From Erysipelotrichaceae bacterium MTC7 (GTDB lineage: Bacteria; Bacillota_I; Bacilli_A; Erysipelotrichales; Erysipelotrichaceae), in NCBI GenBank assembly GCA_001695645.1, contig LVZN01000002.1, forward strand, positions 30,001 to 62,000: a stretch of DNA of 32,000 bases. Direction: 5' to 3'. Position numbers and translations under genes: made by a program. Positions 15,485-30,262 of the stretch are shown in pieces (position 1 is the first letter of the stretch; every line of letters begins with the position of its first letter). Under the pieces are notes generated by a model. The model saw only the letters and a list, made by a program, of their open reading frames with translations. It was not told where the DNA came from and did not search any database.

Positions 15485-16285
15485 ATGTTTGAAAAAGTAA
15501 ATCCCGCACATCCCGATAAACTGGCTGACCGCATCGCCGGGGCCATTGTGGATGCCGCATACAGAAAAGAAAGTGATCCGAAGATCGCCGTGGAAGTCCT
15601 GCTCGGTCACGGAATGTGTCACATTATCGCGGAGACTTCTGTACATATTCCGAAGGGCGAGATCACGGATATTGTCCGCCGTATCGCCGGGAATGTGAAA
15701 ATCAGCGTCCAGGAAGTTCCGCAGGACGGGCACCTGTCTAAGAATCAGTCTGCCGGGTTTCGCTGCGGTGACAACGGCATCTTTAAGGGCGTGCCTGTGA
15801 CGGATGAGCAGAAAAAGCTGACAAAGATCGCCGCAGATATCTACGGTCAGTACCACGCTGACGGCAAGTATATTCTGGACGGCGATAATCTGACCTTCTG
15901 CCAGAGCAATGCAGATACACAGCAGCTGAAGAAATCATATAAGAAAGCCGTGGTCAATCCGCTGGGTGACTGGACGGGCGGCACGGATGTGGACGCAGGA
16001 GCCACGAACAGGAAGCTCGGCTCTGATATGGGCGATTCCGTCACAGGCGGCGGTCTGCACGGTAAAGACCTGTCAAAAGCTGACGTGTCCGTGAACATCT
16101 GGGCATGGCTCAAGGCGCAGGAAACCGGCAAGCCCGTGGAGCTTTCCTGCTCCATCGGAGATGAGAAGGTCGGCGGCGTGCCGTATACGGAGATCGTAGA
16201 GACCGCGAGGAAATACATCGATGGTCTCGGCGGTTTTGAGAAATTTGCGGAATGGGGGTTGGTGCGATATGAAGACAACGACTGA
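15485..16285 (+). CDS. metK: Compact (266 aa) S-adenosylmethionine synthetase (MetK) homolog
   Basis: Aligned by eye to MetK signatures: AHPDKLADRIAGAIVDA (GHPDKxxDxISDAxLDA), CGDNGIFKG (GAGDQGxMFGYA), NPLGDWTGG...ATNRKLGSDMGD (NPTGRF..GGP..D.GLTGRKIIVDTYGG), GGGLHGKDLSKADVS (GGGAFSGKDPxKVDRS). About 120 aa shorter than canonical MetK. Confidence 0.7.
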   Translation: MFEKVNPAHPDKLADRIAGAIVDAAYRKESDPKIAVEVLLGHGMCHIIAETSVHIPKGEITDIVRRIAGNVKISVQEVPQDGHLSKNQSAGFRCGDNGIFKGVPVTDEQKKLTKIAADIYGQYHADGKYILDGDNLTFCQSNADTQQLKKSYKKAVVNPLGDWTGGTDVDAGATNRKLGSDMGDSVTGGGLHGKDLSKADVSVNIWAWLKAQETGKPVELSCSIGDEKVGGVPYTEIVETARKYIDGLGGFEKFAEWGLVRYEDND

Positions 16286-17528
16286 AATGCAGCTCGTTCC
16301 GATTGCAAAACTGGTACCTTATGTGAATAACGCGCGTACCCACTCCCCGGAGCAGATAAACAAGCTGCGATCCTCCCTCCGGGAGTTCGGCTTCATCAAT
16401 CCTGTCATTATCGACCGTGACTTTGGCGTTATCGCCGGCCACGGTCGTATTCTTGCGGCGAAAGAGGAAGGCATCACGGAAGTGCCGTGTGTCTTTGCCG
16501 ACCATCTGACAGAGGCGCAGAAGAAAGCGTATATCATCGCCGACAACCGCATGGCGATGGACGCCGGATGGGACGAGGAGCTTCTGCGTGTCGAGATCGA
16601 GGCTTTGCAGGGCATGGACTTCGATCCCATGCTCACAGGCTTTGATGAAAAGGAACTGGCTGACCTGTTTGGCACAGAGTCTGACAGCGAGGCGAAGGAT
16701 GATGACTTTGACCTGACCGCCGCATTGGAGAAAGCCGCCTTTGTGGAGCGGGGTGATATCTGGACAGTGGGCAGACACAGGCTGATGTGCGGAGACGCTA
16801 CGGACGCTGGAGATGTCGCATTGCTGATGGGCGGCAGGAAAGCCAACCTTATCGTGACAGATCCTCCGTATGGCGTATCCTTCAAGAGTTCCAGCGGTCT
16901 TACCATACAGAACGATTCCATGAAGAACGAGGAGTTTTACAACTTCCTGTTCGCTGCGTTCAAGTGTATGGCGGATGTGCTGGAGAAAGGCGGCGCGGCT
17001 TATGTGTTCCACGCGGACACCGAAGGCTTGAACTTCCGAAAAGCGTTCATTGACGCCGGGTTCCACCTGGCGGGCGTGTGTATCTGGGTGAAGAATTCCC
17101 TGGTACTTGGTCGCTCGGATTATCAGTGGCAGCACGAGCCGGTGCTTTACGGATTCCTGCAGAACGGCAAGCATCCGTGGTACTCCGACCGCAAGCAGAC
17201 CACCATCTGGAATTATGATAAGCCAAAACGTAACGCCAACCATCCGACATCAAAGCCGCTCGACCTGCTCGGATACCCTATCGGGAATTCCTCGCAGGAG
17301 AACTCCATCGTGATCGATACCTTCGGCGGCAGCGGCTCCACCATGATGGCATGCGAACAGATGAACCGCATGTGTTTCACTATGGAGCTGGATGAGAAGT
17401 ACGCATCGGTCATCCTCCGCAGGGCTGTGGAGAACGGCATTGATCCCGCTGACATTTATGTTGAAAGAAACGGAGAAAAAATGATGTACTCCGACCTCGT
17501 GAAAGAGGTGGAGGTTCCTAATGAGTAA
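16269..17528 (+). CDS. ParB-like nuclease domain fused to a beta-class N6A/N4C DNA methyltransferase
   Basis: N-terminal ParB/Srx-like segment (VPYVNNARTHS...IAGHGRILAA). Methylase motif IV IVTDPPYG precedes motif I DTFGGSGST (beta-class order). Overlaps metK-like by 17 nt and the next gene by 8 nt. Confidence 0.85.
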   Translation: MKTTTEMQLVPIAKLVPYVNNARTHSPEQINKLRSSLREFGFINPVIIDRDFGVIAGHGRILAAKEEGITEVPCVFADHLTEAQKKAYIIADNRMAMDAGWDEELLRVEIEALQGMDFDPMLTGFDEKELADLFGTESDSEAKDDDFDLTAALEKAAFVERGDIWTVGRHRLMCGDATDAGDVALLMGGRKANLIVTDPPYGVSFKSSSGLTIQNDSMKNEEFYNFLFAAFKCMADVLEKGGAAYVFHADTEGLNFRKAFIDAGFHLAGVCIWVKNSLVLGRSDYQWQHEPVLYGFLQNGKHPWYSDRKQTTIWNYDKPKRNANHPTSKPLDLLGYPIGNSSQENSIVIDTFGGSGSTMMACEQMNRMCFTMELDEKYASVILRRAVENGIDPADIYVERNGEKMMYSDLVKEVEVPNE

Positions 17529-19659
17529 ACTGACGCTTGGCAGCCTGTTTGACGGTTCCGGCGGTTTTCCTTTGGGCGGCTTGATTTCCGGCATCACTCC
17601 CGTGTGGAGTTCGGAGATCGAGCCGTTTCCCGTTATGGTGACTTCGAAGCGGCTGCCGTTTGTGAAACATTATGGTGACGTATCCACGTTAAAGGGCGGC
17701 GAGCTTGAGCCGGTGGATATCATCACCTTCGGCTCACCCTGCCAGGATATGTCCGTGGCGGGTAAAAGAGAGGGGCTGGACGGCTCCCGTTCAAGCCTTT
17801 TCTATGAAGCTGTCCGAATCGTAAAGGAAATGAGGTGTGCAACCAATGGAAAATATCCGAGATACATCGTCTGGGAGAACGTCCCAGGCGCGTTCAGTTC
17901 GAACAAAGGCGCGGACTTCCAGTCCGTCCTCGAAGAGATCTGCAGCGTCAAAGGATACGAGATTGATCCTGCTCGACCTGCGAAATGGCCAAACGCCGGA
18001 GAGATCGTGGCAGACGATTTCAGTCTCGCATGGCGGGTATTTGATGCTCAATACTGGGGAGTTCCCCAGCGAAGAAAACGTATCTACCTTGTCGCAGATT
18101 TTGCAGGCGGGAGTGCCGGAAAAATATTATTTGAGTCAGAAGGCATGTCTGGGTATACTCCGCAGGGCTTCCGCTCGTGGGAAGGAGCTGCCGGAACTGC
18201 TGAAGAAGGCGCTCATGCGTCAGGCATCGGCATAGACGGATACAACGGAGCTGTCTCTGATGAGGCGGCTACCCTTGGCGAGAACTGCGGGATGTCCACG
18301 GGCAGGAACGGCGTCATGGTCTTAAACGACCAGGGCGGCGACCGCATGGATGTGACGGAGGGAGTGACCTGTACGCTCCGCGCAGAGGCGCACCATCCTC
18401 CCTGCGTGATGGGAGCGGCGGGTTTCTGCACTGAGCATTCAGCGGATTCCAGGGGCATCGGATATGAAGAGGAGACTTCTCCCACGCTCCGTGCCGGGAC
18501 AGTTCCGGCTGCGGTCTATGAGAACCACAGCCAGGATACCAGATACACGGGGCCGCTTGATGTGGCTCCTACGGTGATGTCCACCTACGGAACGGGCGGC
18601 AATAACCAGCCGTTCGTGGTGGAGGACACTCCGAAAACGCTGAAGATCCGTTCCGGCTGTGAGGGTGGCGGTAAGGGCGCACTGATACAGGATAATAAAT
18701 CGGCAACGCTCGGCTGCAACAACGATCAGACCGTCTTTGTGCCGTTTGTAAAAGGCACCCGTCCACATTCTGCCGAAGAGGGACAGCAATGGAAGGAATC
18801 CGATGTGGCAAATACGCTGAATACCCATGACGTCGGCGAGGCAAGGTGCAACGAGCTGGCGGTTAAGGTCTACGGCATCTGCTCCAAGGATTCAAACGCC
18901 ATGAAGTCCGATAATCCGAAAAGCGGATTCTATGAGGCGGATACCACACGGACGCTTGACGCAAACGGCGGCAACCCCTCCTGCAACCAGGGCGGCATGG
19001 CTGTCGTGGCTCTTGAGGGCAACGGTGCAAGACCGTCCCATAAGGGCAGCGGCTATTCCGAGGAAGATGTCAGCTTCACGCTGAATGCTACAGAACAGCA
19101 TGCCGTAGCATACGGCATCGACCGTGCTACCTATAACATGGGGCAGAACGCCAAGTTCGGGATCGCGGTCGAGGAGGAAGTCGAGCCTACGATGGTGGCA
19201 AAGGGACCGGGCGCGGTCGGACAGCCTGTGTACCATTCCAGCAAGAGTTCATTTCACACGAATTTCTCAGATGAAGCTGTATCTGATACGCTTGTTGCCA
19301 CTGACTTCAAAGACCCGCCGACGGTATCGGAAGACCCATATTATATCGTGAGGAGACTTACTCCTACTGAGTGCGCAAGGCTGCAGGGCTTTCCCGAATG
19401 GTGGTGCGACGGGCTTGGAACGGACGAGCCGACCGAGGAGGAGATTGCTTTCTGGACGGAGGTGTTTGAAACGCATCGGAGGGTTATGGGGACATCCTCC
19501 AAGCCGAAGACCAGGAACCAGATCATCAAGTGGATCAAGGAGCCGCATTCCGACTCCGCAGAATATAAGATGTGGGGCAACGGCGTGGCTTTGCCGAATG
19601 TCTGCTTTGTGCTTTCGGGGATCGTGTACTATGCACAGTTCCCGGAATTTTTGTTGTGA
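17521..19659 (+). CDS. DNA (cytosine-5) methyltransferase, 712 aa, with a target-recognition region of about 400 aa made of repeated TL-type units
   Basis: Motif I LFDGSGGF, motif IV GSPCQDMS, motif VI ENVPG, motif VIII QRRKRIYLV, motif IX RRLTPTECARLQGFP, motif X GNGVALPNV. Between VIII and IX are 11 occurrences of (D/E)(D/E)xxxT(L/V/M). Confidence 0.9.
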   Translation: MSKLTLGSLFDGSGGFPLGGLISGITPVWSSEIEPFPVMVTSKRLPFVKHYGDVSTLKGGELEPVDIITFGSPCQDMSVAGKREGLDGSRSSLFYEAVRIVKEMRCATNGKYPRYIVWENVPGAFSSNKGADFQSVLEEICSVKGYEIDPARPAKWPNAGEIVADDFSLAWRVFDAQYWGVPQRRKRIYLVADFAGGSAGKILFESEGMSGYTPQGFRSWEGAAGTAEEGAHASGIGIDGYNGAVSDEAATLGENCGMSTGRNGVMVLNDQGGDRMDVTEGVTCTLRAEAHHPPCVMGAAGFCTEHSADSRGIGYEEETSPTLRAGTVPAAVYENHSQDTRYTGPLDVAPTVMSTYGTGGNNQPFVVEDTPKTLKIRSGCEGGGKGALIQDNKSATLGCNNDQTVFVPFVKGTRPHSAEEGQQWKESDVANTLNTHDVGEARCNELAVKVYGICSKDSNAMKSDNPKSGFYEADTTRTLDANGGNPSCNQGGMAVVALEGNGARPSHKGSGYSEEDVSFTLNATEQHAVAYGIDRATYNMGQNAKFGIAVEEEVEPTMVAKGPGAVGQPVYHSSKSSFHTNFSDEAVSDTLVATDFKDPPTVSEDPYYIVRRLTPTECARLQGFPEWWCDGLGTDEPTEEEIAFWTEVFETHRRVMGTSSKPKTRNQIIKWIKEPHSDSAEYKMWGNGVALPNVCFVLSGIVYYAQFPEFLL

Positions 19660-19661
19660 GT

Positions 19662-19751
19662 TATTCTACACCGAAATGTGCGGAAATCGCTTGATATTCC
19701 TGGGGTTCAGAGTGATTAATGTACTACCAAAAACAAAGGAGGTTTTCGCAC
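19662..19751 (+). promoter_or_regulatory. Promoter/leader cassette, copy 1 (most divergent)
   Basis: TTGATA (19691-19696), a 19-nt spacer, then TG-A-TTAATG inside TTCAGAGTGATTAAT (19706-19720). AAAGGAGG RBS, ATG at 19752. Confidence 0.5.
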
Positions 19752-20468
19752 ATGGAAATCAGGTACAACGTAACAGGCGCACAGCGCAAGGAACTGGTAA
19801 AGGCCATCGCCGATACCACGGGAGCAAAGGCAAAGTACATGGGAATGCCCACGGCAGCCTACGAGATCGACTACTTCACGGTAACCAAGGACGGAATGCT
19901 CATCTTCGATGACAGAGCGGACAGCGAGGAAGTGGAGCAGGTGCTTGAGGCCATCGCCGCCGCAGGGTTCGACTGTGAGCCGCAGGACGGAGAGGATTCG
20001 GAGTTTGAGGAAGTATCCGAAACCGAAGAGAACGCACCACAGGCGGCCACAGACGGGCTTACGGTGGCGGTTCCGAGGGACAGCCTTTCGGACGCCGCCA
20101 TTGAGAACCTGCAGAGGATCGTGGATTCCAAGGCGGCGCTCATGAAAAAGGCAATCGGCACGGACAGCCTTCCGATTGAAGTGACTGACGAGAAGGTATC
20201 CTTCCCCTGGTTCACGGAGATGGACGGCGATTCCGCAAGGGCATACACGCACCTTGTCTCCGCACTCTGCGAGATGGCGAGGAACGCCAAGCGAGTGACC
20301 GCCACGGAAAAGGAAGTCGACAACGAGAAGTACGCATTCCGCTGCTTTCTCCTGCGTCTGGGCTTCATCGGTGCTGAGTACAAGACCGAACGTAAAATCC
20401 TGCTGAAGAACCTCACGGGCTCCTCGGCTTTCAAGAACGGAGGTACTGACCATGAGATTTCCGAGTAA
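19752..20468 (+). CDS. 238-aa protein: apparent catalytically gutted paralog of the downstream amidoligase (shared N-terminal strand-helix and C-terminal module, acidic linker replacing the core)
   Basis: C-terminal KYAFRCFLLRLGFIGAEYKTERKILLKNLTGSSAFKNG versus amidoligase KYAMRTWLLRLGFIGEEFATARDFLTRNLSGDTAFRHG. N-terminal EIRYNVTGAQRKELVKAIADTTG resembles amidoligase VEVEMNSIKRSKAAKIAADFFG. No HIHIG-type core. Confidence 0.6.
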   Translation: MEIRYNVTGAQRKELVKAIADTTGAKAKYMGMPTAAYEIDYFTVTKDGMLIFDDRADSEEVEQVLEAIAAAGFDCEPQDGEDSEFEEVSETEENAPQAATDGLTVAVPRDSLSDAAIENLQRIVDSKAALMKKAIGTDSLPIEVTDEKVSFPWFTEMDGDSARAYTHLVSALCEMARNAKRVTATEKEVDNEKYAFRCFLLRLGFIGAEYKTERKILLKNLTGSSAFKNGGTDHEISE

Positions 20469-21136: not shown

Positions 21137-22087
21137 ATGAACGCAAGGACAGAGAGACAGATTACCGAGATGAAGAACCAGACCATCGGGGTCGAGGTCG
21201 AGATGAACAGCATCAAGAGGAGCAAGGCAGCGAAGATTGCCGCCGACTTCTTCGGAACAGGCAGATACGAGAACACAGCAAGCCGCAACGGGTACTACAC
21301 CTGGTCGGCTTGGGACAGCGAAGGTCGCGAGTGGAAATTCCAGAGGGACGTTTCCATCAGCGGACCGGACGATGAAAAATGTGAGATGGTCACGCCGATC
21401 CTTACCTACGGCGATATCGAAACCCTTCAGGAACTTTGCAGACAGCTTCGACACGCAGGCGCAAAGAGCGATGCCAGCCGGGGCTGCGGAGTCCACATCC
21501 ACATCGGAGCGAACGGTCACACGCCGCAGACGCTCCGCAACCTCGCAAACATCATGGCAAGCCATGAGAGTCTGATCGCCGAGGCTTTGAAGCTCGACCG
21601 CTACCGCATGGACAGATACTGCCGCACGGTGGACCCGAACTTCCTGCAGGCGGTCAACCGCAAGAAGCCTAAGACCATGAGCCAGCTTGCGGACATCTGG
21701 TATACCTCGCAGGGAGCGAGCTACGGCAGGACGCAGCACTACAACGACAGCCGCTACCATATGCTCAACTACCATGCGACCTTCACGAAGGGCACCATCG
21801 AGTTCCGGCTCTTCCAGTTCGATGAGCCGACAGCGGAGCGCAAGGGCGGCATCCATGCAGGACAGCTGAAGAGCTACATTCAGCTTTGCCTCGCACTCAG
21901 CCAGATGGCAAAGGACGTGCGGACGGCAAGCCCGAAACCGCAGCAGAACGAGAATCCGAAATACGCCATGAGAACCTGGCTTCTCCGCCTCGGATTCATA
22001 GGAGAGGAATTCGCAACGGCGAGGGACTTCCTTACCCGCAACCTTTCCGGGGACACGGCATTCAGGCACGGCAGAGCCGCCGCTTGA
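21137..22087 (+). CDS. Amidoligase (Amidoligase_2 / glutamine-synthetase-like fold family)
   Basis: IGVEVEMNS N-terminal strand, W-x-F-x-RD-x-S, CGVHIHIG, GTIEFRLFQ: the signature order I recall for PF12224-type amidoligases of phages and conjugative elements. Confidence 0.75.
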   Translation: MNARTERQITEMKNQTIGVEVEMNSIKRSKAAKIAADFFGTGRYENTASRNGYYTWSAWDSEGREWKFQRDVSISGPDDEKCEMVTPILTYGDIETLQELCRQLRHAGAKSDASRGCGVHIHIGANGHTPQTLRNLANIMASHESLIAEALKLDRYRMDRYCRTVDPNFLQAVNRKKPKTMSQLADIWYTSQGASYGRTQHYNDSRYHMLNYHATFTKGTIEFRLFQFDEPTAERKGGIHAGQLKSYIQLCLALSQMAKDVRTASPKPQQNENPKYAMRTWLLRLGFIGEEFATARDFLTRNLSGDTAFRHGRAAA

Positions 22088-22186: not shown

Positions 22187-22660
22187 ATGGCAAAGAGATA
22201 CTACATCGCTTACGGCAGCAACCTCAACGTTCCGCAGATGCGGATGCGCTGCCCACGCGCCACGATCCTCGGAACGGCGAACCTTACGGGCTGGGAGCTG
22301 CTTTTCAAGGGAAGCAAGACAGGCTCCTACCTCACGATTGAGGAATGCGAAGGCGGCACGGTTCCCGTGGTGATCTGGGAAGTGACGGAATCGGACGAGG
22401 CGGCTCTTGACCGCTACGAGGGGTTTCCCACCTTCTACTACAAGAAGGACATCAAGCTGAAGTACAAGGGCATCCGAACGGGAAAGCGCAGGACGGTGAC
22501 GGCGTTCGCCTACATCATGCACGAGGAGCGTCCCATCGGTGTTCCGAGCAATTTCTACATGAGGACTTGCCTTGAGGGATACGACACCTTTTACTTCGAC
22601 AAGAACATTCTGATCGATGCTTACGATAAATGCAGGGAGGTATGCGGCCATGAAGGATAA
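22187..22660 (+). CDS. Gamma-glutamylcyclotransferase (GGCT / AIG2-like) family protein
   Basis: YYIAYGSNLNVPQMRMRCPRATILGTANLTGWELLFKG... and ...ALDRYEGFP..YYKK are classic AIG2/GGCT N-terminal and central motifs. Confidence 0.8.
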   Translation: MAKRYYIAYGSNLNVPQMRMRCPRATILGTANLTGWELLFKGSKTGSYLTIEECEGGTVPVVIWEVTESDEAALDRYEGFPTFYYKKDIKLKYKGIRTGKRRTVTAFAYIMHEERPIGVPSNFYMRTCLEGYDTFYFDKNILIDAYDKCREVCGHEG

Positions 22661-29885: not shown

Positions 29886-30262
29886 GCCGCCGGGTATCCG
29901 TGGACGGCATGGCGGACGCCATCATGGAGGAACTGACGAAGTACTCCGATCTTGCCGCCGATGAACTGAAAGCCGCCGTGAAAGAGACGGCGCAGTCGGT
30001 ACGCAAGGACATCCAGGCGTCCGCTCCGTCACGCACGGGGAAATATAAAAAATCGTGGTCGGTAAAGACTGTGAAGGAATCCTCGGAAACCATCGACCTG
30101 GTGGTGCATTCCAAAAACCGCTATCAGATAGCGCACCTTCTGGAACATGGCCACGCCAAGCGAGGCGGAGGAAGGGTCGCGGCAAGACCGCATATCGCTC
30201 CCGCTGAACAGGCAGGAAACGAAAAGCTGGTAAAGACCATCGAGCAGAAGCTGAAAGGGTGA
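29882..30262 (+). CDS. HK97 gp10-family tail-component protein
   Basis: ...QASAPSRTGKYKKSWSVK... and GHAKRGGGRVAARPHIAPAEQ match the HK97 gp10 family pattern. Overlapping stops and starts. Confidence 0.75.
   Translation: MSRRVSVDGMADAIMEELTKYSDLAADELKAAVKETAQSVRKDIQASAPSRTGKYKKSWSVKTVKESSETIDLVVHSKNRYQIAHLLEHGHAKRGGGRVAARPHIAPAEQAGNEKLVKTIEQKLKG

Follow-up and report, generated by a model that had tools for sequence, protein, structure and literature searches.

The 32,000-nucleotide stretch of DNA analysed here (contig LVZN01000002.1 of Erysipelotrichaceae bacterium MTC7, positions 30,001 to 62,000 of the forward strand; hereafter the window) encodes a complete C5-cytosine DNA methyltransferase of 712 residues, in which the catalytic core is interrupted by an array of about ten short modules resembling target-recognition domains (TRDs). 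Multispecific C5 methylases are known from a handful of Bacillus phages, where they carry two to four recognition domains (against about ten in the window protein) and where anti-restriction is their demonstrated role. No single enzyme is known to us for which more than about five specificities have been reported, a number below the module count of the window protein. Taking together its catalytic motifs, the statistics of its recognition array and the behaviour of the modules among its relatives, this protein is probably an orphan phage multispecific C5 methylase with the architecture of the SPR, phi3T and rho11s enzymes, a longer recognition array and an anti-restriction use. A stronger version, which we offer tentatively and would not bet on at even odds, is that most of the roughly ten modules would be active, that each polypeptide would methylate at least eight unrelated motifs by docking alternative modules of about 35-50 residues on its one core, and that the modules would come from a large pool shared among gut Clostridia phages and reshuffled through microhomology at the Thr-Leu codons.

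The motifs of C5 methylases are all present in the canonical order (FDGSGG at residues 10-15, PCQ at 73-75, ENV at 119-121, QRRKR at 183-187, RRLTPTE at 611-617 and GNGV at 686-689), as had been noticed in an earlier inspection of the letters and their open reading frames by a model (hereafter the sequence-only reading), whose span of 18253-19320 corresponds to residues 245-600 and lies inside the open reading frame. The enzyme class is corroborated by family models (PF00145, 139 bits for a cut-off of 22, in two stretches interrupted by a long insert; TIGR00675, 128 bits for a cut-off of 100.65) and by a PDB sequence search, in which HhaI and HaeIII match residues 7-136 and then again motif IX. 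AlphaFold2 (AF2) modelled most of both core halves with a predicted local distance difference test score (pLDDT) of 84-98, in the N-terminal half over most of residues 1-205 apart from a loop at residues 76-90 below 50, and Foldseek matched the core, and the core only, to HhaI and HaeIII (E-values of 8e-12 to 4e-10, about 190 columns), supporting a Rossmann-like, S-adenosylmethionine (SAM)-dependent methyltransferase fold for the large domain. HhaI and HaeIII (whose methylases have GCGC and GGCC as targets, respectively) have this same catalytic fold and a single TRD of about 80-110 residues, whereas in the window protein motifs VIII and IX are 428 residues apart, in line with the variable region of roughly 400 residues that had been estimated from the letters. 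The C-terminal core additionally contains a helical insert of about 60 residues between motifs IX and X (window 19396-19575, residues 626-685), predicted with a mean pLDDT of 87-97 per 10-residue block; this insert is kept across the methylase family, is missing from HhaI and HaeIII, and distinguishes the window protein from the Bacillus phage enzymes.

In the region between motifs VIII and IX, the sequence-only reading had listed eleven Thr-Leu/Val/Met sites, and all eleven were recovered at the positions and in the contexts given (Thr 251, 285, 322, 351, 373, 396, 432, 478, 520, 557 and 590), spaced 22-46 residues apart; the corresponding units are called U1 to U11. Such sites are far more frequent than composition would give. 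Counted in a variable region of 423 residues and compared with 20000 shuffles, there are 9 Thr-Leu (TL) dipeptides (1.3 +/- 1.1 in the shuffles), 14 T[LVM] sites (4.7 +/- 1.9) and 13 T[LVM] sites with an Asp or Glu at most six positions upstream (2.7 +/- 1.55), none of the shuffles (0/20000) attaining any of the observed counts. Of the 16 leucines in the region, 9 come directly after a threonine; three extra T[LVM] sites (at 327, 404 and 601) are not units. The likeness extends to the surroundings of the dipeptide, given that the unit flanks, with the TL masked, reach a mean pairwise score of -3.0, compared with -13.5 +/- 1.45 at random positions. At the DNA level, no repeats beyond short matches were found across the array in the gene, which rules out a recent tandem duplication of the units; the units are therefore old and diverged.

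The layout of the units is that of the recognition domains of the Bacillus phage enzymes. For this comparison the SPR, rho11s, H2 and SPbeta enzymes were taken from their records in GenBank, which had been located with an SPR sequence used as a probe only. Each TRD of these enzymes contains one core of the form hydrophobic-Tyr-x3-Gly-hydrophobic-x2-Thr-[Leu/Ile/Val] (for example NVYNSSGLSPTITT, RVYSPDGVSPTLTT and DDEPAFTVNT), and the cores (three in SPR, four in rho11s, four in H2 and two in SPbeta) lie 30-48 residues apart. The window units have an aromatic or hydrophobic residue at position -8, Asp or Gly at -4 and Val or Thr at -3, followed by the T-L; when the TL was masked, the eleven units scored on average -3.3 against five Bacillus cores, compared with -13.5 +/- 1.6 for random positions, and no random set (0/20000) did as well. 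The clearest case is U9. Profiles were built for each unit from family homologues (reversed-sequence controls reaching at best 5.9 bits over all profiles), and that of U9 matches the stretch 'QNGRRFKEDDEPAFTVNTIDRHGVAIG' in SPR, rho11s, H2 and SPbeta with 18-22.5 bits (independent E-values of 3e-8 to 7e-7). This stretch is C-terminal and is the sole TRD common to all four Bacillus enzymes. It is most likely their GGCC domain, because it is the only TRD that they share, because HaeIII has 'WNEPAFTVQ' at the equivalent position (sequence verified) and because GGCC is what we take to be the only specificity that the four have in common. As judged from the profile matches, U9 is demonstrably homologous to this TRD, a homology which leaves its own specificity unfixed.

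The likeness to the Bacillus family also holds for the general plan. M.SPRI, M.Phi3TI, M.Rho11sI, M.H2I and M.SPBetaI are likewise phage-encoded, with one C5 core and contiguous TRDs between motifs VIII and IX, and in both groups the module content varies among related phages. The differences lie in the spacing, with 39 residues from motif VIII to the first module in the window protein and roughly 90-120 residues before the first TL core in the Bacillus enzymes, and in the hosts, which are gut Clostridia for the window family and Bacillus for the SPR-type enzymes.

Evidence for a modular array comes from the relatives of the window protein. The modules (33-50 residues each, built around a putative beta-hairpin ending in Thr-Leu) are gained, lost and reordered in register, as expected of independent modules. 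Among close relatives (75-97% identity, 624-713 residues; occupancy was counted in 120 of them), U1 occurs in 18 and U7 in 56, and each is present or absent as a block; P0016 has neither of them. One relative (P0010) lacks exactly the segment that the two TL dipeptides of U7 and U9 delimit, an in-register deletion of 88 residues with a 9-nucleotide identity at its junction (ACGCTGAAT, the Thr-Leu-Asn codons of U7 at 18814-18822 and of U9 at 19078-19086), and another (P0009) lacks the segment from just past the TL of U1 to just past the TL of U3. The Thr codon is ACG in ten of the eleven units and the Thr-Leu pair is encoded as ACG-CTN, so that the conserved codons would supply the microhomology for in-register rearrangement.

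Shuffling is more extensive at larger distances, in a set formed by the top 150 representatives (clustered at 50% identity) of a full-library search. Each window unit type was recognized 14-96 times in this set, nearly every type is found after nearly every other, and the order differs from that of the window in 30 of the 90 proteins with at least three recognizable units. In the relatives that do keep the order, window-type units span only 28-63% of the variable region, and the pool of modules must therefore be much larger than the window protein displays. At the other extreme, P0203 (413 residues) has a single TRD, of the combined U5 and U6 type (U5U6), and nothing else (BLAST recognized the part corresponding to U6, and a diverged counterpart of U5 was seen by eye). 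Its AF2 model (pLDDT 81, predicted TM-score 0.82) aligns with HhaI over the full length (TMt 0.64), and in this predicted structure a single module serves as the complete TRD. Two further minimal relatives (P0178 and P0249) combine a U4-type module with a U11-type element that has AL in place of TL. Since U5 stands next to U6 36 times among the 150 representatives, and since the sole TRD of P0203 is of the U5U6 type, these two units (97-100% conserved in close relatives) are read as one module with two T-L strands; on this sequence evidence, the array is made up of about ten modules from eleven TL hairpins.

Units across the relatives were gauged by the length of the variable region and by T[LIVM] contexts. 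Two other ways of counting were discarded: single-linkage clustering of all TL 23-mers chained 422 units into one cluster and was thus unusable for counting module types, and a generic 19-column hidden Markov model of the unit under-detected (9 of the 11 window units and 2 of the 3 of SPR). An alignment of relatives contains inserts of about 20-23 residues with the pattern KHRP.RQ.RP at two places in the array ('CGCPVDTSQPKAEKHRPNRQVRP' in P0041 and 'CGSPVETSAKQKHRPSRQARP' in P0051 and P0072; columns 284-306 and 426-446 of alignment A1), which suggests either a short mobile insertion or a linker of another type.

The array is as well conserved as the enzyme that carries it. In close relatives, U3-U6 are 0.94-1.00 identical to the window, compared with 0.90-0.92 for the catalytic core, and in those distant representatives which have the units, U5, U6 and U8 reach 0.62-0.63, compared with 0.59-0.62 for the core. 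The array is therefore not a decaying linker, and these identities show it to be under purifying selection.

Several observations weigh against a broadly multispecific enzyme, and the first concerns structure. The AF2 model of the full protein has a pLDDT mostly below 50 across residues 208-603, nearly the whole array, with exceptions of about 57 at residues 371-390 and about 74 at residues 447-473. These low values may be technical, arising from the global MAFFT alignment (2284 columns), which cannot align shuffled modules, or they may reflect a genuine conformational alternation. The structure prediction that had been suggested as a check thus showed neither a beta-solenoid nor a single insertion domain, and did not confirm independently folded modules. 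It might be supposed from the low pLDDT, from the lack of Pfam and PDB sequence matches to the insert and from the position of U11 at the canonical distance from motif IX (T250-L251 of HhaI also lies 21 residues before that motif) that the 400-residue insert is no recognition array but a linker, disordered or repetitive, or else one insertion domain with another role (such as protein binding or packaging), in an enzyme monospecific through its last unit. We find this scarcely credible, considering that TL is enriched about 7-fold with flanks that match TRD cores, that U9 is homologous to a mapped TRD, that the insert is conserved like the core, that its composition is not low-complexity and its DNA free of repeats, and that short relatives use single modules as their sole TRD.

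The second group of objections concerns homology. U9 is alone in having solid homology to a mapped TRD: the U4 profile reaches a weak, marginal 4.5-7.5 bits with the 'RVYSPDGVSPTLTTMGG' TRD common to H2, rho11s and SPbeta, and the profile search gave no significant Bacillus match for the other units. The alignment to Bacillus TRDs proposed in the sequence-only reading accordingly bears out the common core pattern and the homology of U9, and does not extend to the remaining units. Searches of Pfam with single units and of PDB sequences with the variable region alone returned no match, which, in the case of Pfam, we put down to units that are shorter and more diverged than library models can pick up. 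U5U6 was considered as a homologue of the HhaI TRD ('TPKTV...GKGGQG...ITL') and rejected, as 246 of 2000 shuffles equalled the score; this is a resemblance only. Additionally, the literature searched contained no 5-methylcytosine (5mC) methylation data for members of the family.

The third objection comes from the k-mer statistics of the window, which avoids GGCC (0.20 of expectation), GGWCC (0.21) and GCCGGC (0.06) and has no GAGCTC, GGATCC or CTCGAG at all; avoidance of such palindromes is not obviously what broad self-methylation would predict. ACGT (0.34), CGCG (0.48) and CCGCGG (0.15) are also avoided in the whole window, while GCNGC, CCWGG, CCNGG, TCGA, AGCT and CTGCAG occur about as often as expected. 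Those sites that are not avoided might be the ones covered by methylation, and the avoidance could simply mirror the composition of the host.

The main rival to a largely active array, which we regard as unlikely, keeps the same architecture and has one to three active TRDs, with the remaining units being pseudo-TRDs or spacers that provide raw material for recombination. The palindromes still avoided in the window would suit it, and so would the rho11s and H2 enzymes, which carry TL-bearing, inactive pseudo-TRDs and have fewer active specificities than their four TL cores each. It would also be in keeping with U1, U5 and U11, the least TRD-like units (the flank scores of U1 and U5 are the lowest), in whose homologues the Thr is retained in 45-62% only; in U11 the TL is often changed to 'AL', and this unit may be a scaffold or a pseudo-TRD. 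The number of eleven units initially counted is better put at about ten modules, with U5 and U6 merged, and U1, U5 and U11 are weak TRD candidates. For the remainder (U2, U3, U4 and U6-U10), T[LIVM] is kept in 75-88% of the homologues, which is not what inactive spacers would lead one to expect, nor is the fact that units are at least as conserved as the core in close relatives (with U5, U6 and U8 equalling it in distant ones). Moreover, module types recur across many backgrounds, which argues for selection on each of them.

A different possibility is that the array has no list of discrete specificities and that the modules jointly bind DNA with a relaxed and very frequent specificity, leading to dense methylation of short or degenerate motifs. 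The AF2 model, with no discrete folded domains in the array, could be read in this way; an adjoining SAM-synthetase-like gene would fit a high demand for methyl groups, and frequent, non-specific adenine methylases are known in phages (PMC3526280). We nevertheless judge it improbable, since a single module makes up the whole TRD of the short relative P0203, one module is homologous to a Bacillus phage TRD with a defined target, and the combinatorial presence and absence of modules is better explained by independent units.

Table 1. Features of the methylase gene, its recognition array and the adjoining genes (window positions).
Feature	Positions	Strand	Remarks
Complete C5 methyltransferase gene	17521..19659	+	ORF, Pfam, TIGRFAM and PDB matches
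N-terminal catalytic core, residues 1-226	17521..18198	+	Motif, Pfam and PDB matches, AF2, Foldseek
Motif I, FDGSGG	17548-17565	+	N-terminal core
Motif IV, PCQ	17737-17745	+	N-terminal core
Motif VI, ENV	17875-17883	+	N-terminal core
Motif VIII, QRRKR	18067-18081	+	N-terminal core
U1, residues 227-262, T251	18199..18306	+	Optional, weak TRD candidate
U2, residues 263-299, T285, 'GVTCTLRAEAHHPP'	18307..18417	+	
U3, residues 300-333, T322, 'GYEEETSPTLRAG'	18418..18519	+	
U4, residues 334-366, T351	18520..18618	+	Weak match to 'RVYSPDGVSPTLTTMGG' TRD
U5+U6, residues 367-408, T373 and T396	18619..18744	+	Single module
U7, residues 409-447, T432	18745..18861	+	Optional
U8, residues 448-497, T478	18862..19011	+	Commonest module type, 96 recognitions among 150 representatives
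U9, residues 498-535, T520, 'SFTLNATEQHAVAYG'	19012..19125	+	Homologue of Bacillus C-terminal TRD
U10, residues 536-570, T557, 'EVEPTMVAKGPGAV'	19126..19230	+	
U11, residues 571-607, T590	19231..19341	+	TL 21 residues before motif IX
C-terminal core, residues 608-712	19342..19656	+	PDB match, AF2, motif search
Motif IX, RRLTPTECARLQGFP	19351-19395	+	C-terminal core
Motif X, GNGV	19576-19587	+	C-terminal core
ParB N-terminal domain and N6/N4 amino-methyltransferase fusion (phrog_498)	16221..17528	+	Upstream, same apparent operon
266-residue protein, matches N-terminal domain of SAM synthetase (MetK) only	15485..16285	+	Directly upstream of both methylase genes

The genes around the methylase are those of a phage or prophage (DNA polymerase, primase-helicase, SNF2-type helicase, small and large terminase and an Enc34-type single-stranded DNA-binding protein). 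The C5 methylase gene starts with an ATG that overlaps the stop codon of the ParB-methyltransferase gene (ATGAGTAA) and is preceded, 5-14 nucleotides upstream, by a GAGGTGGAGG ribosome-binding site; the phage thus encodes two chemically different methylases in what appears to be a single operon. The 266-residue protein (Table 1; PF00438, 45.7 bits; TIGR01034, 50 bits, below the cut-off of 309) may be a divergent or truncated phage MetK supplying the methyl donor. No restriction endonuclease was found among the neighbouring genes scanned (the ParB-methylase, the amidoligases and the terminase), and with the phage context this makes the enzyme an orphan phage-encoded methylase. Just downstream lie genes for two amidoligase-like proteins (phrog_2443; PF12224) and for a gamma-glutamyl cyclotransferase (19719-20468, 21137-22087 and 22187-22660, + strand), in an arrangement that is also present in PV036426.1, the closest GenBank record. 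On the opposite strand, a 389-residue protein (233-1402, - strand) has the CTD11 domain of ABC-three-component (ABC-3C) systems (PF20277, 131 bits); its gene, at what may be the border of the phage, is perhaps one for defence or conflict.

The position of the methylase gene, between the replication and packaging modules and near amidoligase and gamma-glutamyl cyclotransferase genes, could also suggest that methylation serves mainly to mark DNA for packaging or replication, to reprogram host expression in lysogeny, or to provide 5mC as a substrate for hypermodification; in addition, prophage methylases can be silent in lysogens (PMC3526280). We consider such purposes very improbable, given that the window ORFs scanned include no gene for a TET/JBP-like protein or a glycosyltransferase, and that a combinatorially shuffled array is what would be expected from an arms race with diverse restriction systems.

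Relatives of the window protein are abundant. The full-library search with the protein gave 4062 clusters (50% identity) at E <1e-30, and the variable region is between 120 and 706 residues long in the top 150 representatives; in P0139 (792 residues) it has 14 well-formed units, 21-47 residues apart. The array had been described from the letters as far larger than the Bacillus examples, which holds against the characterised enzymes and does not hold against this sequence space. A still larger array, or an insertion, is suggested by a tblastn match of about 1000 codons (64% identity) in a Clostridiales metagenome-assembled genome (MAG; CAJKHT010000050.1, locus L040, 3001-6006), which, together with loci L054 and L056, makes up the top three genomic matches by length. 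With 96% identity, the best match is in a Lachnospiraceae MAG of roe-deer rumen, and further relatives were found in Lachnospiraceae, Oscillospiraceae, Acutalibacteraceae, Ruminococcus, Megasphaera, Merdibacter and others; those in bacterial genomes and MAGs are presumably prophages. Cultured strains among the carriers include Hespellia stercorisuis DSM 15480, Ructibacterium gallinarum DSM 107454, Neglectibacter timonensis SN17, Megasphaera massiliensis NP3, Lachnoclostridium phytofermentans KNHs2131, Mobilitalea sibirica DSM 26468 and Lachnospiraceae bacterium CE91-St61. In GenBank, the records nearest to it belong to Ca. Heliusvirales phages of Oscillospirales that come from human faeces, of which the closest, PV036426.1, has 75% amino-acid identity for the methylase and the same neighbouring genes. 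As far as these searches indicate, the window protein, though large, is typical of its family, which is abundant and unstudied and belongs to Clostridia phages and prophages of a Ca. Heliusvirales-like kind.

The papers on Heliusvirales report a C5 methylase in 67% of the genomes and a SAM synthetase in 59%, and note them only as common. Passages in three sources (PMC8936443; PMC3526280; PMC11347163) describe multispecific C5 methylases outside the SPbeta-like phages of B. subtilis, namely M.BssHII and M.(phi)BssHII of Bacillus stearothermophilus and M.BceSV, which is encoded by a Bacillus cereus prophage and silent in the lysogen; these are likened here to the window protein by their description, not by sequence. 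With regard to expanded multispecific methylases in gut phages, the literature searched gave only the Bacillus phage and prophage cases, BssHII and BceSV.

In the mechanism that we propose, a single catalytic core (motifs I-VIII and IX-X), interrupted by about ten short modules, would act on many targets as the modules by turns pack on the core and form the DNA-binding cleft. Each docked module would read a different short sequence and present its cytosine for methylation, so that one polypeptide could methylate many restriction targets of the phage genome in advance and let the phage pass from one Clostridia host to another although their Type II systems differ. The array would evolve within the phage population through in-register gain, loss and reordering of modules, aided by the ACG-CTN codons.

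What is new is that the multispecific design of the Bacillus phages appears scaled up about three-fold, and that it is common, occurring in prophages of Clostridia and Negativicutes as well as in one of the most widespread phage lineages of the human gut. Provided that the modules are active, this would explain how such phages tolerate hosts with many Type II systems; one gene could then be used to pre-methylate DNA past restriction barriers in the transformation of gut anaerobes, and hundreds of natural short module-motif pairs in the family would help to work out how these enzymes recognize DNA. The protein is experimentally tractable and potentially useful. Some caution is also called for in gut metagenomes, where sets of 5mC motifs may stem from single phage genes rather than from many host systems. 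Should most of the modules prove active, the family would be a system of anti-restriction cassettes used combinatorially and, at the same time, a natural library in which to read the recognition code of C5 methylases.

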